Below are positions 526 through 32,000 of a stretch of DNA of 32,000 nt, one piece after another. The notes below the pieces were generated by a model, which saw nothing but the letters and a program-made list of their open reading frames with translations, ran no database searches and was not told the origin of the DNA. The stretch's first letter is position 1. Every line of letters begins with the position of its first letter. Source of the DNA: Candidatus Electrothrix sp. GW3-4 (GTDB lineage: Bacteria; Desulfobacterota; Desulfobulbia; Desulfobulbales; Desulfobulbaceae); assembly GCF_037902255.1 (NCBI RefSeq), contig NZ_CP147990.1, forward strand, positions 3,630,001-3,662,000, given 5' to 3'. Both the position numbers and the translations under genes were made by a program.

Positions 526-530
526 CCTCC

Positions 531-5595: not shown

Positions 5596-5596
5596 A

Positions 5597-5835: not shown

Positions 5836-5966
5836 TAACATCCTCCCCCTCGTACTTTCAAACCGACCTGTGTAAAGGACGAACTCCTGCTCTGTGGCCA
5901 TAGATACTTTTGCTCGTCCACCAGAACGCATACTTATCTTTCAGAGAAGAAAAGGAGGAGGGAGTA

Positions 5967-6869: not shown

Positions 6870-6881
6870 GCAGGAGCCGCC

Positions 6882-9465: not shown

Positions 9466-9570
9466 AACAGTCTCTCGCTGAAGAGATCATGGAGGCGATA
9501 AGGGGAAAGTTGAGCGGCTCGACTCCTGTTGATAGCATATCAGCATTATTATATAACAAAGCCGGAAAAG

Positions 9571-10841: not shown

Positions 10842-11081
10842 ATGAAACGGTTTGCTCTTTATTACAAGAAAGAACGTTTATCTCATTGCAAACTTCATGG
10901 CGCAATTGAGGCTGAAAATAGTACAAACGCATTTATAAAGGCTGTTAATACCATTCGAGCAGGCGGTCTTGATCCAGATGAATTTAGGGAATTTTATATC
11001 GTCCCTGTCACCCCTGACAACTCAGTGCAATACAAAATGCAATGTTACGGATGGGACGAGAGCGGAGATTTTCCGAGATAA
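10842..11081 (+). CDS. Hypothetical small protein (79 aa from the ATG at 10842; start uncertain)
   Basis: It is the only sizeable ORF in an AT-rich gap of about 1 kb. There is no convincing RBS and no family is recognised. Confidence 0.3.
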   Translation: MKRFALYYKKERLSHCKLHGAIEAENSTNAFIKAVNTIRAGGLDPDEFREFYIVPVTPDNSVQYKMQCYGWDESGDFPR

Positions 11082-11256
11082 CAACTGATAATGAAATATC
11101 GTCGTGGACTAACGCCAGGCTGTCGGGCTTTATTTCTGTAAATGGTGTAAACAAAGCCTCTTAAAACATACTGATACAAATATAATCAGCTAGATAAGGT
11201 AGACTCACCAACCTCTCACGCCGGTAGCCCGAACTACAAGGTCAAACCCCAGCCCC

Positions 11257-11294
11257 AAACAAAAAAAACCGGGCCACGTGCGGAACGTGCCCGG
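11257..11294 (-). terminator. Rho-independent terminator downstream of the SulP gene
   Basis: CCGGGCCACG-tgcggaa-CGTGCCCGG hairpin at 11269-11294 (9 bp with one bulged C). It is followed on the minus strand by a U-run of eight (plus-strand A-run at 11261-11268). Confidence 0.6.
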
Positions 11295-11474
11295 TGAGTT
11301 GAGGCAGAACGGCCTCCCAGAAGAGATACTAAGCTCCTACCGTTCCAAGGTCCTCAAACAGCACAACATGCTGTGGTGTTTGCAACCGGAGTAGTGCGAG
11401 CCCAGCGCCAGATCACATGGACATTACCCCATCAACCTGGAAGCCGAAAAAATAATCGGAGCATCTTCCTGGCG

Positions 11475-13052: not shown

Positions 13053-13396
13053 CTTTTTCTACATCCATCTCCTTCATGCGTCATATAAGCATAGACCGGC
13101 ATAAACAAGCTGAACCACTCCTGTGTTTTGAGTTTTTAAAAATACAAAAATTACTCCATCGACGTAAGGGGTTGTTTATAGCATTTATTCGGCCTCAAGG
13201 GAATGATTCTTTTTGGTGATAGGGGGAGATTTCCGGTAAGAGAAGAGCAATGAAAGAACGGAGACGCGGGAGTAGAGAGAGGAAGGCAACTGGCTGTTGA
13301 CAATACGGTTTTATTACTGGTACTGTGCCCAGAAAAGATCTACCTGTTTAGATTTATTTTTCCAGATTACCCAACCTATTCAATGTAGGAGTATTG

Positions 13397-14656
13397 ATGA
13401 AAAATTTATTTCCAGGGTACTTTAGAGAATCCCAAGAAAATCTGAGAGAAATTTGGGATTCTTGCATTTTCGTATTTGATGCAAATATCTTACTGAATTT
13501 ATATCGATACTCAGATACTACAAGAAACGAATTTTTAGGCTTACTAGAAAAGATAAAGGATAGAGTCTGGCTGCCTCATCGGGCTGCCGAAGAGTACCTG
13601 AACAACCGGTTATCAGTAATAGACCAGCAAGAACGATCATATGATTCAACGATCAAATCTATCGAAAGTCTAAAAAGTGATTTAGACAACGCTAGGCAAC
13701 ACCCTTTTGTCAGCAAGCAGACTATGAAAAAATTTGATTCTGTAGTTCACGCCTTATGCGAGGAGCTAACCCATAACAAAGAAGTGCATACTCAAAGAAT
13801 ATCAAATGACGAAATAAAAAATTCAATCTCTCAAATTTTTGAAAATAGAGTTGGCTTGCCTTTTGAAAAAGAGAAATTAGAAAAGCTAATTATTGAAGGC
13901 GAAGAGCGCTATAAACAAAAAATTCCGCCAGGATTTAAGGACGGATCGAAATCCACAGACAGCGAAGTGTTCAGCGAACGGTGCCGAAGATTTGGAGATT
14001 TAATTGTTTGGAAGCAAGTTCTAGAACATTCTATCGAAGTTGCCAAAGGCGTTGTACTTGTTACAGATGACAAAAAAGAAGACTGGTGGGAAAAATTCAA
14101 AGGTAAAACTATTGGGCCCCGCCCTGAATTGGTGAAAGAATTTAAAGAACACGCGAATAATACTTTCCATATGTATCAAGCTGACCGGTTCCTTGAGCTA
14201 GCGCGGGAAAACCTCGACGAACAAGTTAGTCAACAGATCGTTGAAGAAGTTCGTGAAGTAATGCGCCGAGACAAAATGGCTTTTCGTAAAAAACAAAAAC
14301 TTGAGAATGTTAGCCGCCAAAAAAACAAGATTAACAGAATGATGAAAGAGTTAGAACATGCTCGTTATCAACTATTAGAGCATCAACACGAAATGGTTTC
14401 ACTACAAGAGAAGGATCATATGCTGGAAACAGAAAGAATGGAGTTGCGAAAACTCAGAGAAAGTTTCCCAGATGATGAATGTGAAATTGAAATGGAGCCG
14501 TTCATACGGCATTACTCTGATTATCATTTAGTCAAAAGGCGATTAAAAGAATCAAAAGATAGGTATCAAGAGTTACAACATCGAGCCATACAGCTGGAAC
14601 ATGAACTGGCCCGACAAATGAAATACATCAAACGAGAAAATGCAGCTGCCTCGTAA
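13397..14656 (+). CDS. PIN-like domain protein (PIN_8/DUF4935-like) with a long C-terminal coiled coil, 419 aa
   Basis: ATG at 13397 with TAGGAG 5 nt upstream. N-terminal IFVFDANILLNLYRYS and later VLVTDDKKEDWW match PIN-like nuclease acidic motifs. The C-terminal ~140 aa are highly charged and heptad-like. The gene is markedly AT-rich. A possible promoter is TTGACA at 13297-13302, then 18 nt, then TACTGT. Confidence 0.75.
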   Translation: MKNLFPGYFRESQENLREIWDSCIFVFDANILLNLYRYSDTTRNEFLGLLEKIKDRVWLPHRAAEEYLNNRLSVIDQQERSYDSTIKSIESLKSDLDNARQHPFVSKQTMKKFDSVVHALCEELTHNKEVHTQRISNDEIKNSISQIFENRVGLPFEKEKLEKLIIEGEERYKQKIPPGFKDGSKSTDSEVFSERCRRFGDLIVWKQVLEHSIEVAKGVVLVTDDKKEDWWEKFKGKTIGPRPELVKEFKEHANNTFHMYQADRFLELARENLDEQVSQQIVEEVREVMRRDKMAFRKKQKLENVSRQKNKINRMMKELEHARYQLLEHQHEMVSLQEKDHMLETERMELRKLRESFPDDECEIEMEPFIRHYSDYHLVKRRLKESKDRYQELQHRAIQLEHELARQMKYIKRENAAAS

Positions 14657-14694
14657 CATTGCTGCTGACTCTGATATCCTTCACCACGCGCCTC

Positions 14695-14915
14695 ATCTCA
14701 ATCATACGTGTGGCTTTATCTCACAAGCACTTGTGAGATAATCTCGATAATGCGTATGAGATAAAGTCAATAACGTTTGTGAGATTCAAAACTGCCTACT
14801 TAGGAAGAAAAGAGATAAGCACTTGCGAGCCTCCCTCCTAACTACTTATCTCCCTCTCTCATACGTACATTCCACTGCGCCACCGCTCCCCGATAACGCG
14901 ACGAGCTTATCTCAG
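14695..14915. repeat. Cluster of at least 7 copies (both orientations) of a TTATCTCA(C/T)A / T(G/A)TGAGATAA motif, including a perfect 12+12 palindrome
   Basis: Perfect palindrome TTATCTCACAAG-ca-CTTGTGAGATAA at 14716-14741. Further copies: TATGAGATAAAG (14755-14766), TTTGTGAGATTC (14776-14787), GAGATAAGCACTTGCGAG (14812-14829), TTATCTCCCT (14846-14855) and TTATCTCAGA (14907-14916). TCATACGT recurs at about 14702 and about 14860. Confidence 0.7.
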
Positions 14916-15093
14916 AAATACCCCCCCCTTCACCTTTCCCTCCTCTTCCTCCTGATTCCCTGCCAGCCGAAGCCGCAGAGACGCAGGTTCCCGTGGCTTG
15001 CGTGCAGTTGTTTTCGCCATTCCAGCAGAGCCGGAAGCCTTCTTCCAACTGGGGAATACCATACTTGGGGCGCAGGACCCGGCTGAATGCCAT
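14912..15093 (-). pseudogene. Decayed copy 1 of the 3' end of the protoporphyrinogen-oxidase-family gene (frameshifted, ~60-bp internal deletion)
   Basis: It aligns by eye with 19165-19403. ORF 14842..15093 begins MAFSRVLRPKYGIPQLEEG, and 17 of these residues are identical to ...FSRVLRPKYGIPQLEEG of the intact gene. A second frame reads LPALLEWRKQLHASHGNLRLCGFGWQGI, against YPVLLDWRRQLHASNDNLHLCGFGWQGIG in the intact gene. Confidence 0.8.
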
Positions 15094-15154
15094 TTCTTTG
15101 AGATCTGAACAGCCCTGATCAGATTACGCCCCAGAGTTTTGAAGAAGCCTGCTC

Positions 15155-15532
15155 CTATCGTAATGTAACAAATGTCTCAAGAGGAATCCTTTCCCTTTTA
15201 CTTGCACCGATCACCTCAACCCCCTGCGTCCCGATTATCCCTTTCAGGCTGATCGCTGTCGTCCATACCGGTTCTGGATGAGGACCGGGAATAGCCTCTT
15301 TCAATCTGCCGCCGCATCCTCCTACAACTTCAATCTCCCAATATTCGGGCTGGTCATCATATTGATGGGGAACCAATTTCACGTCAACAACACCGCTGAC
15401 AAGAACTTTCCCGGTAACTATCAGTACATGAACATCATCCCAAAGAGTAACAATACCGGTATGTTCAAAATCAACGAGTCGGCAGCCTGTGGAGAGGGGT
15501 AATTCATAAAATGCCTTGATACTGTCTTTCAT
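15155..15532 (-). CDS. Hypothetical protein, 125 aa (cargo between the two gene-fragment copies)
   Basis: ORF 15155..15604 trimmed to the ATG at 15530-15532, which is preceded by AAGGAG. No family recognised (MKDSIKAFYELPLSTGCRLVDFEHTG...YWEIEVVGG...). Confidence 0.55.
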   Translation of the reverse strand: MKDSIKAFYELPLSTGCRLVDFEHTGIVTLWDDVHVLIVTGKVLVSGVVDVKLVPHQYDDQPEYWEIEVVGGCGGRLKEAIPGPHPEPVWTTAISLKGIIGTQGVEVIGASKRERIPLETFVTLR

Positions 15533-15631
15533 AGCTCTGCTCCTTGTGAAATTTTGCAGAAAAAAAAAACAACAACCATCCCTTTCCTTAAAGCAGAAAT
15601 CCACGGAGATATCAAGAATTATACTGTCCAG

Positions 15632-15730
15632 CCCCCCTTCACCTCTTCCTCCTTCTCCTCCTGATAGCCAGCCAAAGCCGCAGAGATGCAGATTCTCATT
15701 GCTTGCATGCAGTTGTCGTCGCCACTCCAG
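15632..15730 (-). pseudogene. Decayed copy 2 of the 3' end of the protoporphyrinogen-oxidase-family gene (~100 bp, same internal deletion)
   Basis: cccccttcacctcttcctccttctcctcctgatagccagccaaagccgcagagatgcagattctcattgcttgcatgcagttgtcgtcgccactccag aligns with 19176-19338 and with copy 1. The plus-strand ORFs 14823..15086 and 15516..15776 share QPKPQR(R/C)RF...LACSC.RHS. Confidence 0.75.
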
Positions 15731-15784
15731 GCAAAGAACGTCTATGAATGAGCAGGTAAGCGGCGCATTAAGCTGAAGCCAGGT

Positions 15785-16810
15785 CTACCTAATCTCTTTC
15801 CTCGCTTCAGCTGGAGTTTTCCCGGACCAGCGCTTAAAGGCCTTCCGAAACCCCCGGTCACTTGCAAAACCCAGCCGAAAGGCTATCTCATCAATACTGA
15901 GACTTTTATCGGCCAGCATGCCCATCGCATTGACATATCTGACCTCATCCAGCAGGCTCCCCGGCGTAACATCATCTGGCAGACGTCGACGTAACGTACT
16001 GATGCTCATACCCATGCTCCGAGCCAGACCGGCCACCGAGTAATCCCCCTTGATCGTATTACACATGGCAGCCCGACGGATATCTGCAATCCCGTCTGCC
16101 AAGTCCAGACCGAGTTCCTGACGCAGACGCTGCAGACGCTGCTCCAGTGAGCATCGCACTTCCTGACTCCCTCGACGATTCGAGCGTTTTTTCAGCTCCT
16201 GGGTACTGAGTACCAGGGCATTAAACGCAGCTCGAAAGCTGACCGGGACACCAAAAAAATCCCTATAGATGGCAACATCTCCCCGTGCCTTATGACGAAA
16301 CTGGACGCGGGTCAATAAGCCCTTGCCAAAGCACTCCTCTATGATTCGGGCCCCGATGCCAAGTCCGATTTCCGCCCCCATCCCCTGATCGACCTCGCTC
16401 AGCGGCTGGCTGGTACGAAAAAAGGTCTCTTTTGAAGCGGAAATCGCTTTGATTTCAAGGCGGTCAGCAAGCAAATCGCAATGATCGACAAAGAGATCCA
16501 GCATGGTCTGCGCATCAGGGGCACGAAGCAGGAGTCTCCCTGGAGTGCCGAAATAAGAGACCGGAGCAATCCCTGCCAGCTCCAGCGCTATATTTCGTTC
16601 TGGAAAATTTCTGATCAGCATTTGGAAGAAATCTTCAAAAAAGTCTTCAGGTAGATAATTTTCAGGATCCATCAGTCGACCGGGCTCGATGCCGGTTTCC
16701 TTGCTGATGTATTCTACGGACAAGCCAAGATACGCCGCAAAAAACACAGCAACGGTCCCCATGCTGCTCAGCATACGACATTCCCTAGGCGTTATACAGA
16801 ATGGCTGCAT
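15785..16810 (-). CDS. AraC-family transcriptional regulator (N-terminal ligand-binding-like domain plus C-terminal HTH_18), ~341 aa
   Basis: ORF 15785..16900 trimmed to the ATG at 16808-16810, which is preceded by GAGGAG. The C-terminus SVAGLARSMGMSISTLRRRL...IDEIAFRLGFASDRGFRKAFKRWSGKTPAEARK is a classic AraC dual HTH. Confidence 0.9.
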   Translation of the reverse strand: MQPFCITPRECRMLSSMGTVAVFFAAYLGLSVEYISKETGIEPGRLMDPENYLPEDFFEDFFQMLIRNFPERNIALELAGIAPVSYFGTPGRLLLRAPDAQTMLDLFVDHCDLLADRLEIKAISASKETFFRTSQPLSEVDQGMGAEIGLGIGARIIEECFGKGLLTRVQFRHKARGDVAIYRDFFGVPVSFRAAFNALVLSTQELKKRSNRRGSQEVRCSLEQRLQRLRQELGLDLADGIADIRRAAMCNTIKGDYSVAGLARSMGMSISTLRRRLPDDVTPGSLLDEVRYVNAMGMLADKSLSIDEIAFRLGFASDRGFRKAFKRWSGKTPAEARKEIR

Positions 16811-17401
16811 GAGTCTCTCCTCATAAACAATAGGACAAATACTTTTTAATAACGCTGCCTGAAAAGTTCCTTTTTTTGAGGCATAACAGCATGGAAGCAA
16901 AACAAAAAACGACGTACTATTTAAGTATAGAGATGATTAAAAACAAACCCGACTGTATTGCCAAGGTATATTTTCCAATCATGACCCCACGTTACTCGGG
17001 AAAATCGGAAGATAAAGATAGATAAACAAATAATCATACAAACCTATTAACCAATTTACGAAATCAAAATCTCATCAAAAAAACAAAAAAAGAGAGATAC
17101 TGGAATGATTGCCCGTGAAGCCGTAAGAATATTGATGCTCAGCCCGATCTATTTTCGTCTGACAGCTCGGCAACGCCTTGAGCTGGTCAAGGAATACTGT
17201 CAGGACATGAACAAGTTCAATATTAGCAGAGAAAAAAAATGCTGACCTCAATGTTCCGTTTTTTGCTTCATAAAGGCATGGGGGCAAAAGGATCAAATTT
17301 TCACAACAACTCACTGACGAAAAACCAGAGGGTTATTCCGCACTAACATATCAGAACAAAATAAAAAAAGCAGCAAGATAACATTACAAGAGGAGGATCA
17401 C

Positions 17402-19024
17402 ATGCCCGAAATTACTCGTCCCAGCGGCTTAACTATTTCCCTGCCCGCTACTTACAGAATTGGCACGCTCAGGTCTGAACCGGAAAGCCCGCCGCGTAAT
17501 GCCGAACCCCGGCGGGGTGGACGTCGAGCAGAACCTCGGTCCAGTAAGGAACGGAGGTTCGAAGGAGCGGAAGCGTTTCCCGAGGGAACAGCTATGCTCA
17601 ACGCCCTGAAAGAGCAGGATATGCAGGTGGTGGACAGCTTTACCCTGGAACCACTCCGTTATCGAGCTGAGGCTGCTGACGTGCGGGAAAAACAGAATAT
17701 CAGGCTCCAGCAAGATCTTCAAAAAAACGAAGGTGCTGTGGTTCTTATTGCGCAGAAAGGCGTTTATTCCTGGGTATTTCCAAAAGAAGAGACAAAGACC
17801 CTGCAATCCGATTCCCGCCAGAATGTACGGGGGCAGACTGCCGCCCGATCCGCCAATTTTCACTTTGATGTGCAGTCGCTCAGCAAGGCCGGAAAAAAGG
17901 CGACGCAACGTGGAAAAACAACGGACTTCATATCCTCTACGATCATTGTCATGAAGTTTGTCGCTCACCTTCCTGTCGATTCAGCAATAAAGTTTTTGGA
18001 ACGCAATGTCGAGCCCGGCCTAGTGCTCATCACCTCTCAAGACGCCGGGCAGTGGCTTCGGGTTGAAGATATGCGTTCGATCACCTTACCTACGGATCGC
18101 CGGGCTAAAATACTGCTCCTTGTTCACGGTACCTTTTCAAGCACCACGGGCAGCTTCGGTGCCCTCAGTTATACAGAGCCGGGACAGAAGTTTCTGACCA
18201 AGGTCTTGGAAAAATATGACATTGTGATCGGATTTGATCATCGCACACTCAGCGATGATCCGAAGGCCAATGCTCTGGATCTGCTCAAAAGACTTCAGCA
18301 GGGAACCTGGCCGCATCCCCCTAAGGTGGATGCCATTGCATTCAGTCGTGGTGGCTTAGTGTTACGTTGGCTGGTACAGCGTCTGTTACCTGTTGCTGAC
18401 TGGCCAGCCCGAATTGAACGGGCAGTCTTTGTCGCCTGCACGAACGGCGGCACTATCTTGGCTGAGCCGGAAAATTGGCATGCACTGGTTGATCTGTATA
18501 CAAATCTTGCTGTCGGCTTAAGCCGCCTGCTCGGGATGATACCTCAGGCCGCTGTGCCGCTGAATATTTTTTCCGGCATCCTGCAGGGACTCGGAGCGTT
18601 GGTAAAGTTTATCGCAACCGAGGCGGTGAGCGGCGGTGCGGTGCCAGGACTGGCTGCCATGGAGCCAGATGGCGAGTTTGTAATCCAACTCAACAGCAAC
18701 GCGTCAGCAGCGCCGAAAGAAACTCAGCTCTATGCTATAACCTCACAATTTGAGCCCAAGCTGTCCGGTGAGACGTATGAGCCAGAGGAACTGGCACCCG
18801 AGTTTACCCTACGCCTGGCAGATAGACTTGTCGATCGGCTCATGAATAACGCCCCCAACGACGTCGTGGTTGATACCGCATCCATGACCACATTTGATCC
18901 AGATACGCAGCAGCTCGTACAGGATAAATACGAGTTCGGTGTAACCTCGAAAATCTACCATCTAAATTATTTTACCCGTTCTGAAGTAACCGAGATCCTT
19001 ACCCATTGGCTGCAACTCGAATAA
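17402..19024 (+). CDS. Alpha/beta-hydrolase-fold (esterase/lipase-like) protein with an Arg/Pro/Glu-rich N-terminal extension, 540 aa
   Basis: ATG with AGGAGG upstream. ILLLVHGTFSS...IGFDHRTLS...AIAFSRGGLVLRWL resembles the oxyanion-hole and nucleophile-elbow (xSxG) arrangement of serine hydrolases. The specific family is not identified. Confidence 0.65.
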   Translation: MPEITRPSGLTISLPATYRIGTLRSEPESPPRNAEPRRGGRRAEPRSSKERRFEGAEAFPEGTAMLNALKEQDMQVVDSFTLEPLRYRAEAADVREKQNIRLQQDLQKNEGAVVLIAQKGVYSWVFPKEETKTLQSDSRQNVRGQTAARSANFHFDVQSLSKAGKKATQRGKTTDFISSTIIVMKFVAHLPVDSAIKFLERNVEPGLVLITSQDAGQWLRVEDMRSITLPTDRRAKILLLVHGTFSSTTGSFGALSYTEPGQKFLTKVLEKYDIVIGFDHRTLSDDPKANALDLLKRLQQGTWPHPPKVDAIAFSRGGLVLRWLVQRLLPVADWPARIERAVFVACTNGGTILAEPENWHALVDLYTNLAVGLSRLLGMIPQAAVPLNIFSGILQGLGALVKFIATEAVSGGAVPGLAAMEPDGEFVIQLNSNASAAPKETQLYAITSQFEPKLSGETYEPEELAPEFTLRLADRLVDRLMNNAPNDVVVDTASMTTFDPDTQQLVQDKYEFGVTSKIYHLNYFTRSEVTEILTHWLQLE

Positions 19025-23671: not shown

Positions 23672-25552
23672 ATGAGTGCACAGGTTGAAACCAAACAATT
23701 TCAGGCAGAGACCCGAAAGGTTCTCGATATCGTCATTAACTCGCTCTACACCGAACGAGACATTTTTGTCCGTGAGTTGGTCTCCAATGCTTCAGATGCC
23801 TTGGAAAAATTCCGTCATCTCTCCCTCACGGAACAGCCGGAATTCGATGCCCATGTCCCGCTGGAGATCAATATAGACTGTGATGATAAAAAGCACACCC
23901 TGACCATCACCGATACCGGTATCGGCATGACACCGGAGGAGCTTGAGGAAAACCTGGGAACTATTGCCCATTCCGGCTCGGGGAAATTCGTGGAAGAACT
24001 GGCTGAGGCTGCTAAAAAGGATGTCAGCCTGATCGGCCAGTTCGGTGTCGGTTTTTATTCCGCCTTTATGGCCGCAAAGACCGTTACCGTGCAAACCCGT
24101 TCCTGGGATGGCAGCGAAGGACATGAGTGGCATTCCGACGGCAATGGCTCGTATACCATCAGTCCCTGCCAAGGCCTGCACCGGGGTACCAAAATCATCA
24201 TTGAGCTGAAGGACGATGCTGAAGAATATGGCCAGAAATTCACTTTAGAGCGCATCATCAAGCAGTACTCCACCTTTATCCCCTTTCCGGTCAAGGTGGA
24301 AGGTAATAAGGTCAACACGGTTGAGGCCATCTGGGGACGCTCCAAAAGCGAAATCAGCGACGAGGAGTACAACGAATTCTATAAATTTGTGGGGAATGCC
24401 TACGATGAACCTACCTTCCGTCTCCATTTCGCTGCTGACGCACCGCTGGCCATCAATGCTCTCCTCTTTGTACCCAAGGATAATTTTGAAAACATGGGGA
24501 TGGGGCGCATGGATCCCGGGGTCAACCTCTATTGCCAAAAGGTACTGATTGACCAGCATAGCAAGAGCATCCTGCCGGAGTGGCTGCGCTTTATCAAGGG
24601 TGTGGTGGATTCCGAGGATCTTCCCCTGAACATCTCCCGCCAATCCCTTCAGGATAATGCCCTGGTGATGAAACTACGCAAGGTCATCACCAAACGTTTC
24701 CTCAAACACATGGCAGAAGAGGCCAAAAAAGACAACGAGAAATACCTGGAGTTTTGGAAGACCTTTGGCATCTTCCTCAAAGAGGGGGTCACCTCTGATT
24801 TTGAATACCAGAAAGAGCTGGCAACCTTACTTCGTTTTGAGTCTTCGGCCTCGGAAGCAGGCAGCATGATCTCCCTGCAGGAGTACGTGGATCGGATGGC
24901 AGAGGGACAGGAAGAGATCTACTACATCAACGGACCCAGCCGGATCGCCATTGAAAACGGCCCCTATGTGGAGATGTTCAAAAAACGGGATATCGAGATC
25001 CTCTACACCCTGGAGCCCATTGACGACTTTGTCCTCTCGCATCTGGGTGAATTTGACGGCAAGAAACTGCTTTCCGCTGATCGGGCTGACCTGCGCCTAC
25101 CGGAGAGCACCGAGAAGAGTGATGAAGCCCAGGATGAGGCTGGTGAAGAAAAACTGGCCGAGGCAGTACAGACCTCGCTTTGCAAATGGATGAAAGAGGT
25201 CCTGGGCGACAAGGTCAAAGAGGTGAAGCCATCCACCCGTTTGGTGGATAGCCCGGCCATGATCGTTAATACTGACGGGTATATGACCTCATCAATGGAG
25301 CGAATACTGGCGGCGCAGGGCAAGAGTGGTCAGGATAATCCCATGATGATGAGCGGGAAAAAGGAAATGGAAATCAACCCAGCCAGCTCGCTGATCAAAA
25401 AAATGGCTGATCTCCGTACCAAGGATCAGAATTTTGCCAAGGAGATTGCTGAGCAAATCTATGATAATGCCATGATTCAGGCAGGTCTTCTTGTTGATCC
25501 ACAGGAGATGGTGAACCGAAATTACCGCATTTTGGAGCGGATGTCGGCGTAG
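23672..25552 (+). CDS. htpG: Molecular chaperone HtpG (Hsp90 family), 626 aa
   Basis: FQAETRKVLDIVINSLYTERDIFVRELVSNASDALEK, ITDTGIGMT and GQFGVGFYSAFM are GHKL ATPase motifs of Hsp90. The length is typical and the RBS is AAGGA. Confidence 0.97.
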   Translation: MSAQVETKQFQAETRKVLDIVINSLYTERDIFVRELVSNASDALEKFRHLSLTEQPEFDAHVPLEINIDCDDKKHTLTITDTGIGMTPEELEENLGTIAHSGSGKFVEELAEAAKKDVSLIGQFGVGFYSAFMAAKTVTVQTRSWDGSEGHEWHSDGNGSYTISPCQGLHRGTKIIIELKDDAEEYGQKFTLERIIKQYSTFIPFPVKVEGNKVNTVEAIWGRSKSEISDEEYNEFYKFVGNAYDEPTFRLHFAADAPLAINALLFVPKDNFENMGMGRMDPGVNLYCQKVLIDQHSKSILPEWLRFIKGVVDSEDLPLNISRQSLQDNALVMKLRKVITKRFLKHMAEEAKKDNEKYLEFWKTFGIFLKEGVTSDFEYQKELATLLRFESSASEAGSMISLQEYVDRMAEGQEEIYYINGPSRIAIENGPYVEMFKKRDIEILYTLEPIDDFVLSHLGEFDGKKLLSADRADLRLPESTEKSDEAQDEAGEEKLAEAVQTSLCKWMKEVLGDKVKEVKPSTRLVDSPAMIVNTDGYMTSSMERILAAQGKSGQDNPMMMSGKKEMEINPASSLIKKMADLRTKDQNFAKEIAEQIYDNAMIQAGLLVDPQEMVNRNYRILERMSA

Positions 25553-25564
25553 GCTTGTAACTGT

Positions 25565-25596
25565 AAAAAAATAAGGGCGCGGCAATGCCGTGCCCC
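25565..25596 (-). terminator. Rho-independent terminator for the minus-strand 347-aa gene (may also stop htpG transcription)
   Basis: GGGCGCGG-caatg-CCGTGCCC hairpin at 25575-25595. It is followed on the minus strand by a U-run (plus-strand A-run at 25565-25571). Confidence 0.55.
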
Positions 25597-25699
25597 GTTC
25601 CTACACCAACTCACAAAAGAGGTCACAGAGATCTTCGTACACCGATAGCGTGCCCTACCCTCTCCATTGCGAATTACCTCGCGGTGGGGTTGTCTGCTG

Positions 25700-26743
25700 T
25701 CATGGTGTCGGCCTATGCGTCAATGCTGGCATAAAGATGAGCCAGTTGAAGTCACTAAGAACCCCCGCCCCTCCAAGGACCACATCCTTTCCAGAATTAT
25801 CAGCTCCTGCTGTTACAGTTACTTCAGTAGCGCCAGCAAAGCTCGTCGCATCCTGATACCACTCATTAAACGAAGCTCCGTAAGACTCAAAAACCTGCAG
25901 CTTATGGGGACCAGCTGGCAGACCCTTTATTTGATATTCACCGTTGCCATTTGTTTCAGCATATCCTCTCCAAACCTGATTGCTGTCATAGGCGTCAATC
26001 CAAGCACCCACAACCGGGTCACCTGTCCCATGATAAGTGACCGTCCCAGAGATACTGCCACCGAGGGCGAGAGCGGCATTCACCACATGAGTATCATCTA
26101 ATGCTGAGATTGTTATGAGATCGGCGGTTTCCTCCTCCTTATCATTATACCACTCGGAGACATAGTCAGTAGCCACCGCAGAAAAACGAAGCGTATAGCT
26201 CCCCACTCCCAAACCGGCAAGAATATAATCACCATTTTCATCGGTAAGATCCGAGCGTATCAAATCATACGTCTCGTTAAACAAATGTACGTATACCCCA
26301 GCTATAAAAGTAGCGGAGTCTCCCTCAACAGTTATCGTTCCAGATATTTGAGCATTGCTTGTGACCAAGGATGTGATACCAAGATCGACAGTACCTGTTT
26401 CAGAAACTGGCACCAGATTCGCGTCGTCCTTAATTGCTTGATTATTATACCATTGACTAACATAATTGGTTCCATAGGTGGAGTAGTGCACCTTATAGTC
26501 TCCTGCGGCCAAATCAGTCAGAATATAATAGCCGTCTACGTCAGTCTTATCACCGAACAGCCAGTTTCCACTGTCATCATACACGTCCACCCATAAATTT
26601 GGAATAGCAGCACTATCGGACGCTTGCTTCACATATCCTTCTATAGCTCCGGCCTGCGTTTCGGCAACAGCTAAAAAAAGAACCAAAAAAATTAACAGCA
26701 GCGTTAAAGGTAAAAACCTACAAGAAAATGATCCTTCTTTCAT
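25700..26743 (-). CDS. Secreted protein with three tandem carboxypeptidase-regulatory-like (CarboxypepD_reg/Cna-B-like) repeats, 347 aa
   Basis: It has a signal peptide (…LVLFLAVAETQAGA). Three modules of about 95 aa each contain (I/S)(E/S)G(Y/T)V...D.NG.Y.I..L..G.Y.(V/L)...(V/F)S(Q/E)WY(N/Q)(N/D). RBS GGGGGAG; TATAAT at 26767-26772 on the minus strand. Confidence 0.8.
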   Translation of the reverse strand: MKEGSFSCRFLPLTLLLIFLVLFLAVAETQAGAIEGYVKQASDSAAIPNLWVDVYDDSGNWLFGDKTDVDGYYILTDLAAGDYKVHYSTYGTNYVSQWYNNQAIKDDANLVPVSETGTVDLGITSLVTSNAQISGTITVEGDSATFIAGVYVHLFNETYDLIRSDLTDENGDYILAGLGVGSYTLRFSAVATDYVSEWYNDKEEETADLITISALDDTHVVNAALALGGSISGTVTYHGTGDPVVGAWIDAYDSNQVWRGYAETNGNGEYQIKGLPAGPHKLQVFESYGASFNEWYQDATSFAGATEVTVTAGADNSGKDVVLGGAGVLSDFNWLIFMPALTHRPTP

Positions 26744-27094
26744 CGTAACTCCCCCATTTTGCCCATATTATATTCGACTATTACAAGATAACCATCCTCT
26801 CCTATAATCAATGGTAGCGACGAGCAAAGAAATAATCAAGCTTAAAAACGGTATATCAACTAGTGTTCAAACAACGTTAAGTTGACGAGTCTCTTCTCTT
26901 TTGTTTCCCGAGTTCGAGCACACAATATGAGAATAAAGAGCGCTCCCCCCGGCCTGCGCCCGGGACCAAACTTCCAAATAACAACAATATAAATGTGTTG
27001 TTACTTAGAAGGAAGATTATGTCCCCGTCAGTTTAACGCTCCAGCAGTACTAGTTATCATTAACAATCCGTACAATTTTAGTCCAAAGAAGGCG

Positions 27095-27589
27095 TTAGCG
27101 TGGAAATTGCTCTATTATAGAAGAGGTCGCTTTACGCAGGTAGTACGAGAGCAGAGCACAGGCAACAATGCGGAAGGATTGGAGACGCATGAACGGACTA
27201 CGCAGGTCAATTTTTTTTCTACGGGTGATAATATTCTGCACACGTCCAACAAGATGATCAACAGGTATAAAACAATCAAAAGAGCGACATGCATCTCCTT
27301 TGGTTTGCAGATACAAAACATTACTGTAACAACGACGTCGAAGCAGCCGGTGGATAAGAGGGGACTTTTGCGGGGTGCAGAAAAGAACAATATCACCCAG
27401 GCGAGGATTCTTTCCTTTAAGGGAAGAGATTTCAACTAAATCTCCGCTTTGTATCAAAGGCATCATAGATTCACCAGACACCTTAATACGCACGTTAATG
27501 CCCTCACGGAGCAGAGTACGCACAAAATCTAGCGCTCCTTGGTCGCGAATGCTGATTGTCGGCAAATCGTTCATGAACACCGAACTCAT
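27095..27589 (-). CDS. S26/S24-family serine peptidase, SipW/archaeal-type signal-peptidase-I-like, 164 aa
   Basis: VSGESMMPLIQSGDLV carries the Ser nucleophile motif. GDIVLF, IHRLL and LQTKGDA (Lys general base, TKGD) follow, then VDHLVGRV. ATGA overlap with the upstream kinase-like gene at 27586-27589. There is a C-terminal hydrophobic segment. Confidence 0.7.
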   Translation of the reverse strand: MSSVFMNDLPTISIRDQGALDFVRTLLREGINVRIKVSGESMMPLIQSGDLVEISSLKGKNPRLGDIVLFCTPQKSPLIHRLLRRRCYSNVLYLQTKGDACRSFDCFIPVDHLVGRVQNIITRRKKIDLRSPFMRLQSFRIVACALLSYYLRKATSSIIEQFPR

Positions 27590-28497
27590 TGCAACGATAG
27601 AGCCAGCTTTTCTATAGCTTCTCTGGCGCTTTGATCAGGCCGAAACGCAAGCTCAAACACAGGAATATCTTTCAACAACCTCTCACACAGCACAAGCCCT
27701 TTGCTGGTCCATTCTTCGCTATACCAAGGAATAGAAACCGTCTGAAGAAGACGATGCAGTCCTATTGACGGAGGAAGCTCCACAATCCTAGTTTGTTGAG
27801 CTTGTCGAAGAAAAATAAGTGCAGAAAGAGGTGCGGATTCATTTCGAGCGATTCTCCCTTCACCGTGCCAAGGTGTTCCCCATACCTGCCAGGTATCGTT
27901 AACAGAACGAATGATCAAACGCTCTTCGCTGAAGAGGCAATTTTGTGAATTAGAAAACAGCAATCGGCTGAGGGTAGACTTTCCTCCTCCAGACGGCGCA
28001 GGAAAAACGAGTCCCTTTCCATAAACAGATCCTCCGGCTGCATGGCTGATCAGCCCTTGCTGATTTATAAAGCTGTGCTGAAGTAAAAACAGGCTAAGTG
28101 CTAGCTTAGAAGGAAGAAGCGGCTTCTGCGTTTTGGCAATATTATCTAAGAAGAGAGCGTAATCAAACCGCTCAAACTGAGGATCAATTTCAAGTGCCCA
28201 CAAAAAAACCTCCTCAGAAGGAGTGAGGTGAAGAACCTGGAGATACCCTTTTTCCGTTTTGTAAAAACTTGATCGCTGCTGAGTAAGTATTTTTTCAAGT
28301 TGGTTAACAGCCGGTTTCCTTTCGCAGCAAGAAGCAATGTGTACCTGAAGATCTTCCGGCTGCTGCTCCGGTTTTTTTTCAAGGCGGGCAAAAGAAATAA
28401 AATCTTTTGCCCAAGTCACATCAGAGTCATTCTGAACAAGACAATATTCGGAACTGCATCGAATGGCTATGCCACCAAGAGAGCATTGAAAATTCAT
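27586..28497 (-). CDS. HPr-kinase-like (HprK C-terminal-domain-like) P-loop kinase, 303 aa
   Basis: HAAGGSVYGKGLVFPAPSGGGKSTLSRLL is a P-loop in the context typical of HprK-related kinases. The start codon lies 6 nt after the stop codon of the small peptide ORF. Confidence 0.7.
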   Translation of the reverse strand: MNFQCSLGGIAIRCSSEYCLVQNDSDVTWAKDFISFARLEKKPEQQPEDLQVHIASCCERKPAVNQLEKILTQQRSSFYKTEKGYLQVLHLTPSEEVFLWALEIDPQFERFDYALFLDNIAKTQKPLLPSKLALSLFLLQHSFINQQGLISHAAGGSVYGKGLVFPAPSGGGKSTLSRLLFSNSQNCLFSEERLIIRSVNDTWQVWGTPWHGEGRIARNESAPLSALIFLRQAQQTRIVELPPSIGLHRLLQTVSIPWYSEEWTSKGLVLCERLLKDIPVFELAFRPDQSAREAIEKLALSLQ

Positions 28498-28503
28498 TAG
28501 CCC

Positions 28504-28683
28504 TCAAGATGACCTTGGGTTCTGCAAACAGGTTCCGTTTGGGAACACCTCAAAGCATCCGCCAAGGACTTGGTCTGCAAACAGTGCAACTGTCTTGAGC
28601 TGAGGTTTCTCATATCGTTTTTTCAACGCGATATTCTTCTCTTTCTTTTTCAAACCCGTTATATTATTTTTATGTTCTTCCAT
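28504..28683 (-). CDS. Unannotated 59-aa candidate RiPP precursor peptide: MEEHKNNITGLKKKEKNIALKKRYEKPQLKTVALFADQVLGGCFEVFPNGTCLQNPRSS
   Basis: Hand-translated from the minus strand: ATG at 28681-28683, TGA at 28504-28506. It fills the otherwise empty gap between the rSAM gene (14 nt upstream) and the kinase gene (6 nt downstream). It has a Lys-rich leader with YEKPQL (YxxPxL), a Gly-Gly junction, a 2-Cys core and a C-terminal Ser-Ser. The SD is weak (GACGAG). Confidence 0.6.
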   Translation of the reverse strand: MEEHKNNITGLKKKEKNIALKKRYEKPQLKTVALFADQVLGGCFEVFPNGTCLQNPRSS

Positions 28684-28697
28684 CTTTACTCGTCATG

Positions 28698-29858
28698 TTA
28701 AGTGGTCTGATTATCAGACGACAGTGCTTTTTTCTTTCGTAATGAGCTGCTCTTACAGTAAAAAGAAACTACATTATTCAGCACTCCCGTCTCTAATACA
28801 AAGTTACTCGGACACCCTGCACAAAAACTTCGACTCTGACAACTTGAACAGGCAAAAGAGGGTGGCGCCTTCTGCTCGGGAAACTCATTACTCATTACAC
28901 TCCAAACATCGGAGATTGTCCGACCGGCAAGGAGGTCATATGAAAAATGAGGTGATATGATACATGGTTGCATCTTACCATACGGAGTAACATGATATGA
29001 TGACCGGCCAGCTCCGCAGTAATATAATTTATCCCTAAAAGACCCCACATCAGAACGCGCCGTTATCAATTTTTGCAACTCATTCCTAACCTTATCGATA
29101 GCAAAATCTGCTTCAACGGCCTCCTCATAGGGAAGACGAAAACGCAATATATCCTGAGGTCGATCCCTGCCCGTGCCATCATTCATATTCGTACAGCCAG
29201 CATGGTTATCTTCGTTGGGTAAAACAGGTATAATTGAGGAGTCATGACGAAAAGGCACTCCTAACTTTTCAGCCATTTCCCACATAGCTGAAAGCTCCTG
29301 ATGATTCAAGGTCATCACTATCGCCTTAAGGCGTAACCTGATCTTTTCACCAACAAGTCGTTTTATTCCATTAAGACATAAGGTGAACGAACCAACTTTC
29401 TGAGTTATGGACTCAAAAGTTTTTGCATTGGCACCATAAAGAGTTACGTCCACCGCTCGTGGAGGATACCGAGTGAATAAGCGTACAATACTATCTGAAA
29501 GCGACGTACCGTTGCAATATACCGAGACGAGCAGTCCTGATCGTACTGCATATTCATACACAGTAAGAAAATCATCCCGAAGCATTGGATCTCCACCAGT
29601 CAATGTCAAAAAGAGTGTCCCTGCCTCCACCATCTCATCAAGTAACCTAATGATAGCCTCTGTATTAAGTTCCTTATGACGGTACTGCCAAATCCCCTTC
29701 TGATCTCCAAGATAACAATGCACACAACGAAAATTACAGCGATGTGTCAACTCAAAGGATGCTGATATCGGTATACGAGCTCCTGCTGCACGAGCAAGAT
29801 AGCGATCAATCTCATCGGATTCCACTCCTGCACAATCTTTTTCCGTCCCTTTTACCAT
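28698..29858 (-). CDS. Radical SAM protein with a SPASM-type C-terminal auxiliary-cluster domain (peptide maturase-like), ~386 aa
   Basis: CNFRCVHC (CxxxCxxC) and GGDPML are present. The C-terminus YYCGAGRSSYHVTPYGKMQPC...FACSSCQSRSFCAGCP is SPASM-like. The ATG at 29856-29858 overlaps the PqqD stop codon (TGATG). Confidence 0.9.
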   Translation of the reverse strand: MVKGTEKDCAGVESDEIDRYLARAAGARIPISASFELTHRCNFRCVHCYLGDQKGIWQYRHKELNTEAIIRLLDEMVEAGTLFLTLTGGDPMLRDDFLTVYEYAVRSGLLVSVYCNGTSLSDSIVRLFTRYPPRAVDVTLYGANAKTFESITQKVGSFTLCLNGIKRLVGEKIRLRLKAIVMTLNHQELSAMWEMAEKLGVPFRHDSSIIPVLPNEDNHAGCTNMNDGTGRDRPQDILRFRLPYEEAVEADFAIDKVRNELQKLITARSDVGSFRDKLYYCGAGRSSYHVTPYGKMQPCIISPHFSYDLLAGRTISDVWSVMSNEFPEQKAPPSFACSSCQSRSFCAGCPSNFVLETGVLNNVVSFYCKSSSLRKKKALSSDNQTT

Positions 29859-30148
29859 CAAATTGCCACAGACAATCCTGATTCGACCAAATCTGTTATA
29901 ACTTCAAGCAAGTCTGCCTCAATTTCCTCCCTAGGTGCGTCATACTCCTGTTCGAGCAAGCTCCCTATTTCGGCAAGAGTTCGAGTGCCATCAATGGAAG
30001 ACCAAATAAGTGCCCCTGTATCATTCAGCGTATACAGTTCATCCATAGAGGCAAGCTCTCCTGAAATAGGTACCAGCAAAGTCTCATCCATCACTTTACG
30101 TGTAACTATATTATCAGCCTTTCTGTATATACTATCTAACCTCACCAC
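29858..30148 (-). CDS. PqqD-family protein (RiPP recognition element-like peptide chaperone), 96 aa
   Basis: The size and the sequence VTRKVMDETLLVPISGELASMDELYTLNDTGALIWSSIDGTRTLAEIGSLLEQEYDAPREEIEADLLEVITDLVESGL fit PqqD. GTG start; the exact start is uncertain. Confidence 0.85.
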   Translation of the reverse strand: MVRLDSIYRKADNIVTRKVMDETLLVPISGELASMDELYTLNDTGALIWSSIDGTRTLAEIGSLLEQEYDAPREEIEADLLEVITDLVESGLSVAI

Positions 30149-30170
30149 ATCATTCTCATCAATAACAATC

Positions 30171-30204
30171 AGATAAAGAAAGGCGAAGATATCTCATCTC
30201 CGCC
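30171..30204 (-). terminator. Intercistronic hairpin plus U-rich tract between the C25 peptidase and PqqD genes (terminator or attenuator)
   Basis: The minus-strand RNA GGCG-G-AGAU-gagau-AUCU-U-CGCC (30182-30204) is followed by UUUCUUUAUCU. Only about 20 nt remain before the PqqD start, so read-through is probably needed for downstream expression. Confidence 0.4.
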
Positions 30205-30222
30205 GGTTGATCGACGTCAGTT

Positions 30223-32000
30223 TTAGCGCTGAATCACAGTAGCAGGATCACCAAGAAGGTTGTAAACATCCAATAAATAGCGATCATCCCTCTGATCGCC
30301 ACATTGATCAGCATAATACTGTTTTCCCGACACGATGGCATCGCCGAGACTGGGATTTATTGGGTCCAAAAAGCTTCGATAAAACCCTTCAGACATTGTG
30401 TACGATGCATGATTCCTCACCATACCTGTGGCCCCGTAAAAAGCGCTTGCGGCACCACCAGCCTTTAGTAGCGCTGTTTCGCCTATACTATTTATCGTAG
30501 GGTAACCAAAGCTTGCAGATCCACAGGAGGCACTGAACATGAGCATAGGGTTGCCTATCTCCTGCATATCCTCAATTTCACTCGCAGTCAAGAGATACTT
30601 ACCATGACGTCCATACGCCGTCATAGTACTATGCCCTATATAATGCATAATACCTGAGCCTTGCTGCATCGCTTCAACAATCTGCCCACGGACACTACTT
30701 AACGGCTGTGTCTCTGCGGAAAGACGATTGACCGTAAAATATGGGGACATCAAAGCGGCAACTTTATCCGCAGCAGCCTCAAAGTCTCCGACACTTGGAT
30801 CTGCCCTATCCGTGATCAGCGTCAATTCAGTACTCTTATTATGGCGATTCTCTTCATAGAAGATCAATTTACTGATAAAAGAGTCAAGCTCTCGGCTGTT
30901 ATACGCCGGAATCCTCCCAAGAGCAAACTCTGGAATTTTATCATCACCAATAACATCTGCAAAGAAATTATCACTTGGAAGAAAACCAACCGGAGTCTGT
31001 ACAAGGACACTGGGGACCTGAGGATATCCATAGTCTAGATAGTTTTGATAGTCGTAAGAACCTACCCCTATCAAGGTAATATATCGAGGCACTCTTGACC
31101 ATTTTTCAGAGACATAAGCAAGGAAGTCATGCACGGCCTCAGGTGCAAGCAAACCATAGCTGAATTCATCCTGAATGTCCTCAATATCAACGAGCATTGT
31201 TGTCATTCCCTGAGAAGCTCTATATTCGGCAAGACGTTTCGCTGAATCCATCAAGCCCAAGGAGGTGATAATGACATAGTCAGCCTGATTATCCTCATTG
31301 CGTAAATATGATATCGTATCAACAACGTGGATTTCACCAGAAATAGTTGAGTCGATATTCTCCGTGATATAATAATTAGATCCCGGCTCTGTCAAGATTG
31401 TAACGTTATATTCGCCAACCTGATTTTTGCCAATAAGAGGGCGTAATCGACGAGGAGTGAATGGATCTGTCACATCAAGAGCCAATACCGTGCCACGAGT
31501 AAAACCTTCTACAGTAACTTGATTATATCCGCCGTCATTGAAGAACAACTCTCCGTCAACGGCTTGGTATGCACGGTTATAATCCAGCCCTATAGACTCA
31601 AGATAAACAACCGAATATTGGACATTCCTATTCAGACGTGAGATCAGAGTTACTTTATTATCATCCTCATTAAGCTGGTCAGCAGAAACCTCAGCGCTAA
31701 ATTGATAATCTCCCTTTTCCGACCATTCCGCCGTGCCTATTTTATTCTCATTGAGGAGGATATCCACCTTGAATGAATCAGCACTACCGTAATTCTCATA
31801 TTCGACACCAACCAAATCCACTGTCAGTATAGCTGTTCCGCTCCCTGTCATATATGGCGCATCAATAGAGTATGGCCCAGAAGTGGTATCCTTACCATAG
31901 GCAAGGATGCGAGCCCACGCCCAAAGGTCTTTAACCGGCGTGTCAATATAAATATGGAAAGGGGCACCATTTTCTTCAACCCGATTCTGCGCGAAAAATG
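30223..32000 (-). CDS. Peptidase C25 (gingipain-family) cysteine peptidase, N-terminus outside the window (partial)
   Basis: MHYIGHSTMTAYG (catalytic His context) and MLMFSASCGSASFGY (catalytic Cys context) are present. The frame stays open upstream of the first Met (31851) to the window edge: ...FFAQNRVEENGAPFHIYIDTPVKDLWAWARILAYGKDTTSGPYSIDAPYMTGSG. Confidence 0.8.
   Translation of the reverse strand, partial: FFAQNRVEENGAPFHIYIDTPVKDLWAWARILAYGKDTTSGPYSIDAPYMTGSGTAILTVDLVGVEYENYGSADSFKVDILLNENKIGTAEWSEKGDYQFSAEVSADQLNEDDNKVTLISRLNRNVQYSVVYLESIGLDYNRAYQAVDGELFFNDGGYNQVTVEGFTRGTVLALDVTDPFTPRRLRPLIGKNQVGEYNVTILTEPGSNYYITENIDSTISGEIHVVDTISYLRNEDNQADYVIITSLGLMDSAKRLAEYRASQGMTTMLVDIEDIQDEFSYGLLAPEAVHDFLAYVSEKWSRVPRYITLIGVGSYDYQNYLDYGYPQVPSVLVQTPVGFLPSDNFFADVIGDDKIPEFALGRIPAYNSRELDSFISKLIFYEENRHNKSTELTLITDRADPSVGDFEAAADKVAALMSPYFTVNRLSAETQPLSSVRGQIVEAMQQGSGIMHYIGHSTMTAYGRHGKYLLTASEIEDMQEIGNPMLMFSASCGSASFGYPTINSIGETALLKAGGAASAFYGATGMVRNHASYTMSEGFYRSFLDPINPSLGDAIVSGKQYYADQCGDQRDDRYLLDVYNLLGDPATVIQR

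Follow-up and report, generated by a model that had tools for sequence, protein, structure and literature searches.

A five-gene operon of the cable bacterium Candidatus Electrothrix sp. GW3-4 (Desulfobulbaceae) probably directs the synthesis of a ribosomally synthesised peptide that is modified after translation (RiPP). The operon lies on the minus strand at positions 27095-30148 of a 32,000-nucleotide stretch of contig NZ_CP147990.1 (positions 3,630,001 to 3,662,000), referred to here as the window. It comprises genes for a PqqD-family protein, a radical S-adenosylmethionine (rSAM) enzyme with a SPASM domain, a 59-residue precursor peptide, a ScmC-family P-loop protein and an S26-type peptidase. 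In the pathway favoured here, the PqqD protein would bind the leader of the precursor, the rSAM enzyme would change the core, the ScmC protein would phosphorylate the peptide and the S26-type peptidase would remove the leader. The locus is a single branch within a large, multi-phylum family, in which an rSAM RiPP is joined to a kinase module of the lasso-peptide type. RiPPs made by rSAM enzymes and phosphorylated lasso peptides are each known. A pathway that combines an rSAM/SPASM enzyme, an HprK-like peptide kinase and an S26 peptidase has not been characterised, and the system is therefore a candidate new RiPP class. An earlier note on this DNA, made from the letters alone, had held that the combination corresponds to no characterised RiPP class, and none was found in the searched literature or in the curated NCBIfam models.

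Layout of the operon and its precursor peptide

The five minus-strand genes are closely packed, at coordinates that agree with those of the earlier note, and everything that note had stated about their overlaps and gaps checks out. The PqqD and rSAM genes overlap by 1 nucleotide (TGATG, 29856-29860), the P-loop and peptidase genes overlap by 4 nucleotides (ATGA, 27586-27589), and the small open reading frame (ORF) is flanked by gaps of 14 nucleotides (28684-28697) and 6 nucleotides (28498-28503). Both overlaps vary with the choice of start codon, and the packing is tight either way. This order of genes, including the small ORF, is repeated in many genomes, well beyond chance. The block had also been described as visibly more AT-rich than the neighbouring htpG and kinase genes, and its guanine-plus-cytosine (GC) content is indeed 0.441, compared to 0.508 for htpG, 0.485 for the sensor kinase gene and 0.485 for the whole window. 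However, the AT-rich island extends beyond the five genes, because two flanking genes described below, the adjoining C25 gene (0.444) and the CarboxypepD_reg gene (0.458), are also low in GC. An Rfam scan of 25500-32000 gave no match, and the PADLOC defence models gave nothing beyond a generic match to the viperin radical-SAM core.

The precursor gene (28504..28683, minus strand) belongs to a precursor family that was found by profile search and encodes a peptide of 59 residues, MEEHKNNITGLKKKEKNIALKKRYEKPQLKTVALFADQVLGGCFEVFPNGTCLQNPRSS. The public record lists the product of the small ORF as a hypothetical protein (WGN25_16195). A leader motif of the YxxPxL type, YEKPQL, is found at residues 24-29 (28597..28614, minus strand). 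The predicted core, GGCFEVFPNGTCLQNPRSS, would consist of residues 41-59 (28507..28563, minus strand), with Cys43, Cys52 and the C-terminal Ser59; its boundary is an inferred one, for reasons given below. Judged by its pattern of substitutions, the 59-codon ORF is a real coding gene. Compared with its closest relative (locus L171, whose ScmC protein is 84% identical), codons 23-59 contain 13 synonymous and 4 non-synonymous differences, and codons 1-22 contain 2 synonymous and 14 non-synonymous differences. The 13:4 synonymous excess in codons 23-59 is direct evidence of translation in this frame and of purifying selection on the leader motif and the core.

Homologous loci always carry an ORF of 53-75 residues directly upstream of the ScmC gene. 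A profile built from 15 precursors matched 223 clusters in a large protein collection, and a profile built from 81 precursors retrieved 1,168 representatives at E ≤ 1e-3, 298 of them at ≤ 1e-10. When precursor peptides were searched against Pfam and NCBIfam, neither a family model nor an informative name was returned. The earlier note had staked its claim on a conserved small ORF in homologous neighbourhoods, and such an ORF is present there; its leader is conserved, its core varies and two of its Cys are invariant. In the numbering of the window's peptide, Y24, P27, C43 and C52 are invariant in the family; L29 of the motif is present in the window's peptide as well.

A typical precursor has a basic N-terminus, the segment (P)YEKPRLRxIELAADEVLAxGCK and a variable core. 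The spacing from the Tyr to the first Cys is 20 in 115/115 typical precursors, and in 115/115 the residue after the first Cys is a Lys. From the first Cys to the second the distance is 12-18 residues; from the second to the third it is 4 residues in 86 of the 115, and the third Cys has five residues after it in 91 of them. Almost all family precursors (119/120) have a C-terminal Ser, and 110/120 end in 'GS'. The positions of the Cys are kept across precursors while the sequence between them varies. A family of approximately 1,170 representatives with strict Cys geometry and a C-terminal Ser is now tied to ScmC-family proteins, and the definition of this precursor family makes the system directly testable.

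The cable-bacterial precursors, including that of the window, carry the leader sequence LFADQVL, have two Cys instead of three and do not have a Lys after the first Cys. By these sequence features they are a derived subtype. The two-Cys branch was present in all named Electrothrix and Electronema assemblies turned up by the searches and is for this reason a candidate lineage marker. Precursors of intermediate form were also seen (P0163, and L095 at 3048-3299), in which a cable-type L(F/V)ADQVL leader stands before a three-Cys GCK...C...C...GS core.

In lasso-peptide leaders, the YxxPxL motif lies at -17 to -12 and a Thr, Ile or Val is found at -2 (PMC10368454). The spacing from the Tyr is the same in the window's peptide, which places Val39 at -2 and, by this analogy, would place the leader/core boundary after Leu40. 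A lipobox or an AxA-type site at 'AxG|C' was also considered for this region; it was rejected because the N-terminus is hydrophilic and because K or N occurs at -1 in some members.

The enzymes of the cassette and their known relatives

The PqqD-family protein (29858..30148, minus strand; 96 residues) matches Pfam PF05402 with an E-value of 9.4e-18 and 64.8 bits (cutoff 23.4), and it is likely the leader-binding RiPP recognition element (RRE) of the system. Weak NCBIfam matches to the PqqD models of the PQQ (pyrroloquinoline quinone), lasso and ScmD groups were obtained, every one below cutoff. The PqqD gene adjoins the rSAM gene in all related loci.

The radical-SAM/SPASM peptide maturase (28698..29858, minus strand) is 386 residues long when read from the ATG at 29858 and matches Pfam Radical_SAM with an E-value of 5.7e-18. 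Alternative starts are a TTG at 29861 (387 residues) and a codon 11 codons downstream (375 residues, used in one public annotation). Its Cys are numbered here from the TTG start (387 residues). The motifs that had been read from the operon, CNFRCVHC, APSGGGKST and SGESMMP...TKGD, are present, and the Cys-rich tail noted with them is a readable seven-Cys SPASM region. C42, C46 and C49 (CX3CX2C), together with C282, C300, C338, C341, C347, C350 and C369, are kept in 29-31 of 31 homologues. In a Foldseek search with its AlphaFold2 (AF2) model (predicted local distance difference score, pLDDT, 93.2), the best matches were SkfB, PqqE, BlsE and SuiB, with anSME lower down; by sequence, the best solved relatives are SkfB and PqqE. 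The scores against curated maturase families (AlbA, SkfB, StsB, PapB, PqqE, MftC and others) ranged from 48 to 100 bits, with cutoffs of 265-850.

The top NCBIfam score of the rSAM protein, 99.6 bits, was obtained with the heme enzyme model AhbD. This score is one fifth of the cutoff (500), and the alignment covers residues 35-207 of 387 only, which is the N-terminal core; the match to NirJ (76.4 bits, cutoff 515) is confined to the same residues. The NCBIfam models that align over the full length are the predicted peptide maturases ScmE, GeoRSP, PapB and ACGX. The earlier note would have abandoned its proposal for an rSAM protein that clustered with AhbD/NirJ-type enzymes or anaerobic sulfatase maturases. 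The protein is instead grouped with the peptide-maturase SPASM enzymes by its full-length matches and with SkfB, PqqE and SuiB by structure. It is hardly credible, and strongly disfavoured, that the locus encodes no peptide pathway, with a spurious small ORF and an rSAM enzyme acting on a non-peptide substrate as AhbD and NirJ do: the AhbD score speaks for it, and against it are the limits of that match, a small ORF kept in a fixed position across phyla with a synonymous excess in its C-terminal 37 codons, and a PqqD partner present in all cases.

The ScmC-family P-loop protein (27586..28497, minus strand; 303 residues) is a predicted peptide Ser kinase. Its P-loop, APSGGGKST, is encoded at 27973-27999. 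A precomputed match to Pfam PF27840, 'ScmC', is recorded for this protein and for nearly all of its 107 homologues. PEPCK and HprK/P have one shared kinase fold. The AF2 model of the ScmC protein (pLDDT 92.9) matched PEPCK in Foldseek with an E-value of 1.7e-6 and a template-modelling (TM) score of 0.47, and it matched HprK/P structures (1knx, 2qmh, 1jb1, 1ko7, 1kkl) with E-values of 1.7e-4 to 2.4e-3. H152, K173 and an acidic residue (E/D) at 191 and 192 are invariant in 72/72 sequences, R193 is kept in 71/72, and the acidic pair in the window is Glu-Glu. This set corresponds to the His-Lys-Asp-Asp motif reported for two lasso kinases, PadeK and ThcoK, that phosphorylate the C-terminal Ser of the precursor (PMC9266682). 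Against the NCBIfam models HprK_rel_A and HprK_rel_B the protein scored 19 and 24 bits (cutoffs 200). Genes of the PsmN-like NTP_transf_5 type are present in some family loci; in lasso clusters, PsmN acts on phospho-Ser.

The last gene of the operon (27095..27589, minus strand) encodes a soluble S26/S24-type Ser/His peptidase of 164 residues, a predicted leader peptidase. A start at its second Met (ATG at 27574), favoured by gene callers and by the closest relative, would give 159 residues and an 11-nucleotide gap. The match to TIGR02228, the archaeal and endoplasmic reticulum (ER)-type signal peptidase I, has an E-value of 1.1e-12 and 48.1 bits (cutoff 51.85), and the Pfam scores are 23.7 bits for S26 (cutoff 22.9) and 25.6 bits for S24 (cutoff 23.3). 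The protein can be aligned to human SEC11A/C over the SGSMEP, HR and TKGD boxes, and S41, H80 and D99 are kept in 16 homologues from related loci. Like SEC11, SipW and TIGR02228 proteins, the peptidase carries the Ser/His boxes GxSMxP, HR and KGD. Unlike ER and archaeal signal peptidase I, it does not have a membrane anchor, and it sits in a peptide-maturation operon and not with Sec substrates. No N-terminal hydrophobic anchor was seen when the sequences of the peptidase and its homologues were read. SodX, the maturation protease of nickel superoxide dismutase (NiSOD), is a soluble S26 enzyme that removes an N-terminal propeptide in the cytoplasm; compared to the SodX model (TIGR02754), the window's peptidase scored 20.8 bits against a cutoff of 63.25.

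The closest named entity is the SynChlorMet (SCM) cassette (TIGR04249, TIGR04248, TIGR04250, TIGR04251), which is defined by bioinformatics alone. The likeness consists of a PqqD-related protein, an rSAM/SPASM enzyme and a ScmC-family P-loop protein, which in the window belongs to PF27840, and one source labels a cable-bacterial homologue (P0045) 'SynChlorMet cassette...'. However, the window's ScmC protein scored 23.0 bits (E 4.3e-5) against a cutoff of 125, the ScmD score was 26.1 bits against 100, and the rSAM protein scored 67.2 bits with ScmE and 71.8 bits with ScmF, each with a cutoff of 400. SCM names two rSAM/SPASM proteins, ScmE and ScmF, whereas the window's operon has one. Since all four SCM cutoffs are missed and a single rSAM gene is present, the operon is not a strict SCM member, though its ScmC protein is in the same Pfam family. 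The ScmC homologues of Chlorobium (L056, 34.7 bits) and of L015 (37.3 bits) also fall below the TIGR04249 cutoff of 125, and among the related loci gathered with the ScmC alignment there was no canonical SynChlorMet locus, L056 missing the SCM cutoffs too. The SCM precursor reportedly has not been identified. The window's family differs from SCM in its S26 and C25 peptidases and in that its precursor has been identified. The statement of the earlier note that HprK-like kinases have so far been tied to lasso-peptide clusters was too narrow for this protein: it is a PF27840 ScmC protein, and NCBIfam names the combination of PqqD, rSAM/SPASM and ScmC the 'SynChlorMet cassette'.

The phosphorylated lasso peptides offered for comparison were those of paeninodin (PadeK), ThcoK, SyanK, pseudomycoidin (PsmK/PsmN) and BsfK. 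With these the window's family shares a discrete PqqD-type (B1) protein, a YxxPxL leader with the Tyr 15 residues before a Val, Ile or Thr at -2, an HprK-like kinase with a His-Lys-acidic-acidic motif, a C-terminal precursor Ser and, in some loci, an NTP_transf_5 gene. Neither the five genes nor their neighbours include a lasso cyclase (an asparagine-synthetase homologue), and a leader peptidase of the B2 transglutaminase type is likewise absent; the peptidase present is of the S26 type. The rSAM/SPASM enzyme and the S26 peptidase stand in for the cyclase and B2, and the precursors have conserved Cys in place of the residues of a Gly1...Asp/Glu7-9 ring.

Sactipeptide and ranthipeptide systems (AlbA, SkfB, CteB, PapB, SCIFF) resemble the operon in having a SPASM domain with Cys sets for two auxiliary clusters, RRE leader recognition and a core with Cys. 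They differ in that the scores of the window's enzyme are 68 bits with AlbA (cutoff 850), 54 with SkfB (300) and 51 with PapB (340). The RRE of the operon is a separate protein, the kinase, S26 and C25 proteins are outside those classes, and a thioether is in this case a proposed linkage. No curated model or paper for this system was found in the searched libraries and literature. The searched literature likewise held no paper that links ScmC or HprK-like proteins with rSAM RiPPs and none that describes this system in cable bacteria; the relevant work was that on lasso peptides only.

In all precursor-bearing loci whose sequence is long enough for a verdict, the PqqD, rSAM, precursor and ScmC genes are found as a group. 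The named sources are Desulfobulbaceae, a hydrothermal-vent gammaproteobacterium, Aminicenantes, Actinomycetota, Desulfatibacillaceae, Acidobacteriota and Gemmatimonadota, and the cassette is spread over at least six phyla. At least two different precursors are present in some loci. An S26-type peptidase is found in approximately 19 of the precursor-bearing loci. The loci without it (L012, L013, L096, L097) all carry a C25 peptidase gene, six loci have S26 without C25 (L036, L062, L101, L107, L112, L113), and L015 has neither within 10 kilobases. The S26 and C25 genes are complementary in distribution across loci. The earlier note had asked whether the five genes co-occur across genomes, and PqqD, rSAM, precursor and ScmC are indeed always together; S26 and/or C25 is usual, but S26 is missing from some loci. 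On one metagenome contig (L107, 838-6088), two successive PqqD/rSAM/S26 sets were seen with one recognisable precursor and one ScmC gene.

The trio of kinase, PqqD and S26 genes is also found without an rSAM enzyme or a lasso cyclase, in Paenibacillus solanacearum (L081, 8786-13101) and in many Clostridia. This rSAM-less trio looks like a wider chassis of kinase, recognition protein and peptidase. A motif scan of the Paenibacillus and Clostridia kinase-PqqD-S26 loci gave no convincing precursor. The L081 trio is accompanied by NTP_transf_5 and ABC transporter genes, and the clostridial loci include L022, L023, L049, L050, L067, L072 and L087.

The proposed pathway and its alternatives

In the proposed pathway, the 59-residue precursor is translated and its YxxPxL leader would be bound by the PqqD-type protein, as homology and the motif suggest. 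The rSAM/SPASM enzyme would then most likely join Cys43 and Cys52 to backbone or side-chain carbons as thioethers; a thioether is proposed because it is the commonest outcome for an enzyme and substrate of this kind. The ScmC protein would phosphorylate a Ser, likeliest the C-terminal Ser59, as HprK-like kinases of lasso clusters do. The soluble S26 peptidase would cut off the leader in the cytoplasm, probably near Leu40/Gly41, and so replace the lasso B2 protein. A secreted C25 peptidase encoded next to the operon could provide a second round of processing outside the cell; alternatively, the peptide may have this protein as its target or partner.

Several points weigh against this pathway. 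Every chemical step in it is one that we infer. With every curated NCBIfam model of a known maturase, kinase or PqqD partner, the score is far under cutoff. The structural match of the ScmC protein to HprK/P is modest (TM approximately 0.3 on the query and up to 0.54 on the target), and a search of the protein against a Pfam copy that does not contain PF27840 gave no match at E ≤ 0.01, to Hpr_kinase_C or to any other model. The HprK-like kinase of the earlier note keeps its fold, at the level of a modest match, its P-loop and its catalytic motif, but not a match to Hpr_kinase_C. The target site of the kinase is also uncertain, since for at least one lasso kinase, BsfK, the phosphorylated Ser is an internal one. 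Of 12 precursors of the cable-bacterial subtype, 8 have a C-terminal Ser, and the rest end in SG, SLG, SA or SDP. The predicted cleavage site does not follow the classical rule of small residues at -3 and -1 of signal peptidases, and no transporter gene is found among the operon's genes. Finally, the pathway does not account for the C25 peptidase.

The C25 gene bears on the first alternative. It encodes a secreted protein with a C-terminal peptidase C25 domain (Pfam Peptidase_C25, E 8.6e-68), and the 3' part of this gene, for 2,064 residues in full, lies at 30223..32000 on the minus strand, where it is cut by the window end. The earlier note had limited the cassette to five genes and had missed this conserved secreted peptidase at the window's edge. 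The full gene is seen in L001 (2081-8275), a sequence identical to the window over 5,017 nucleotides; the protein has a signal peptide, and its C25 domain is at the extreme C-terminus. CLIPPER/DUF7933 adhesin-type repeats were also seen in the C25 protein, which in strain YB6 reaches 4,457 residues.

The modified peptide could be a partner of the secreted C25 protein (a substrate, an inhibitor or regulator, or a handle attached to the surface by the PorU-like domain), with the cytoplasmic enzymes only preparing it. This explanation is unlikely. C25 proteins are secreted, and a C25 gene lies beside the cassette in approximately 15 of the approximately 19 loci with enough flank, in several phyla. 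On one cable-bacterial contig (L005/L006), there are two C25 genes, and each has a precursor gene and a ScmC gene of its own behind it; the PqqD and rSAM genes are not duplicated. The best NCBIfam match of the C25 domain is PorU, the sortase of type IX secretion (T9SS), at 181 bits, below cutoff. However, C25 is missing from L015 and from the six loci named above that have S26 alone, and the cassette has no peptide export gene. In the window, a terminator-like hairpin (30182..30204, minus strand), with a ten-pair stem followed by a T-rich tail, parts the C25 gene from the operon. It lies between the C25 stop and the PqqD start and is a consensus match only; it suggests that the five genes are at least partly a transcription unit separate from the C25 gene. 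Adjacency, moreover, cannot tell a processing protease, as LanP is, from a target. A second, GC-rich hairpin at approximately 26945-26975, downstream of the peptidase gene, was considered and is not claimed as a terminator because its folding was no better than that of shuffled sequence (z -0.05).

The repeated link with C25 hints at a role outside the usual antibiotic model. A bolder and doubtful proposal would combine the two ideas: a new class of RiPP with a chassis like that of lasso peptides (YxxPxL leader, PqqD protein and HprK-like kinase, with rSAM/SPASM and S26 enzymes replacing the cyclase and B2) whose product works with a dedicated, secreted, PorU-like C25 protein as its substrate, regulator or attachment handle. 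The cable-bacterial two-Cys branch has a giant surface C25 protein on one side and a secreted repeat protein on the other, and could on that account contribute to the special cell envelope of these bacteria. Little is understood so far about the biology of that envelope. A more remote idea, drawn by analogy with the S26-processed NiSOD, is that removal of the leader by a cut just before a Cys could yield a thiolate-rich, metal-binding peptide.

It is improbable that the product is a small-molecule cofactor made from the C-terminus of the peptide, as in PQQ and mycofactocin, with the rest a disposable scaffold. The Gly-Ser terminus of 110/120 typical family precursors, the lack of a transporter gene in the operon, the rank of MftC among the best rSAM matches (97.8 bits) and that of PqqE among the best structures all fit such a product. 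However, the MftC match covers the N-terminal core only and is far under its cutoff of 265, the C-terminus is not invariant in cable bacteria, and redox-partner genes of the kind found in mycofactocin loci are not present. The kept Cys positions and spacings, the free residues between them and the multiple precursors in some loci are typical of peptide products and not of cofactors.

There is similarly little to recommend a ScmC protein that is not a kinase but holds the precursor as an ATP-binding scaffold, as a chaperone or as a phosphorylase, with the C-terminal Ser kept for another use, for example as the rSAM site. Besides the missing Hpr_kinase_C match, it is favoured by a sequence search of solved structures that returned only generic P-loop matches, by a best fold match to PEPCK and not to HprK/P, and by the Glu-Glu pair of the window compared to the Asp-Asp of lasso kinases. 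Against it, all 72 sequences keep the His, the P-loop Lys and both acidic residues, as would be expected of a catalytic set, and one and the same model matches both PEPCK and HprK/P. A C-terminal Ser in 119 of 120 family precursors and a PsmN-like nucleotidyltransferase in some loci also argue for the kinase of the proposed pathway.

Genes around the operon

Downstream of the operon, a secreted protein with CarboxypepD_reg/SdrD_B repeats is encoded at 25700..26743 (minus strand; Pfam CarboxypepD_reg, E 3.5e-28). Its position downstream is conserved in cable bacteria, with homologues after the cassette in L004 (12317-13105), L005/L006 (15985-17229 in L006), L011 (11275-13134) and L091 (2013-3419). 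Four homologues carry a near-C-terminal (I/V)P(V/I)YKLLLLK(K)R sequence, which resembles a sorting or processing signal; the window's protein has a different end, ...FNWLIFMPALTHRPTP.

Directly upstream of the C25 gene and outside the window, L001 (1-1752) encodes an AAA_16/AAA_22 ATPase and a LuxR/GerE-type response regulator, which could be regulators of the locus. Sugar genes flank the cassette in several loci (L008/L009/L098 at 1-7000 and 14289-15845; L004 at 14213-17445; L062 at 10840-11757). They encode a glycosyltransferase, a polyprenyl-phosphate sugar transferase (Glycos_transf_4), a flippase and a nucleotidyltransferase, and their presence hints at a phospho-Ser peptide linked to glycan chemistry.

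Elsewhere in the window, positions 13001-14500 have a GC content of 0.38-0.39, compared to 0.485 for the whole, and a PIN_8 (PIN-like) protein of 420 residues is encoded at 13394-14656; this segment may be a horizontally acquired insert. A BtrH_N and DUF4872 protein, similar to butirosin BtrH, is encoded at 7399-8424, with PagL-like and polysaccharide-deacetylase genes close by (8857-10395). A protein of 540 residues encoded at 17402-19024 consists of DUF7362 and DUF7379, both of them recently defined.

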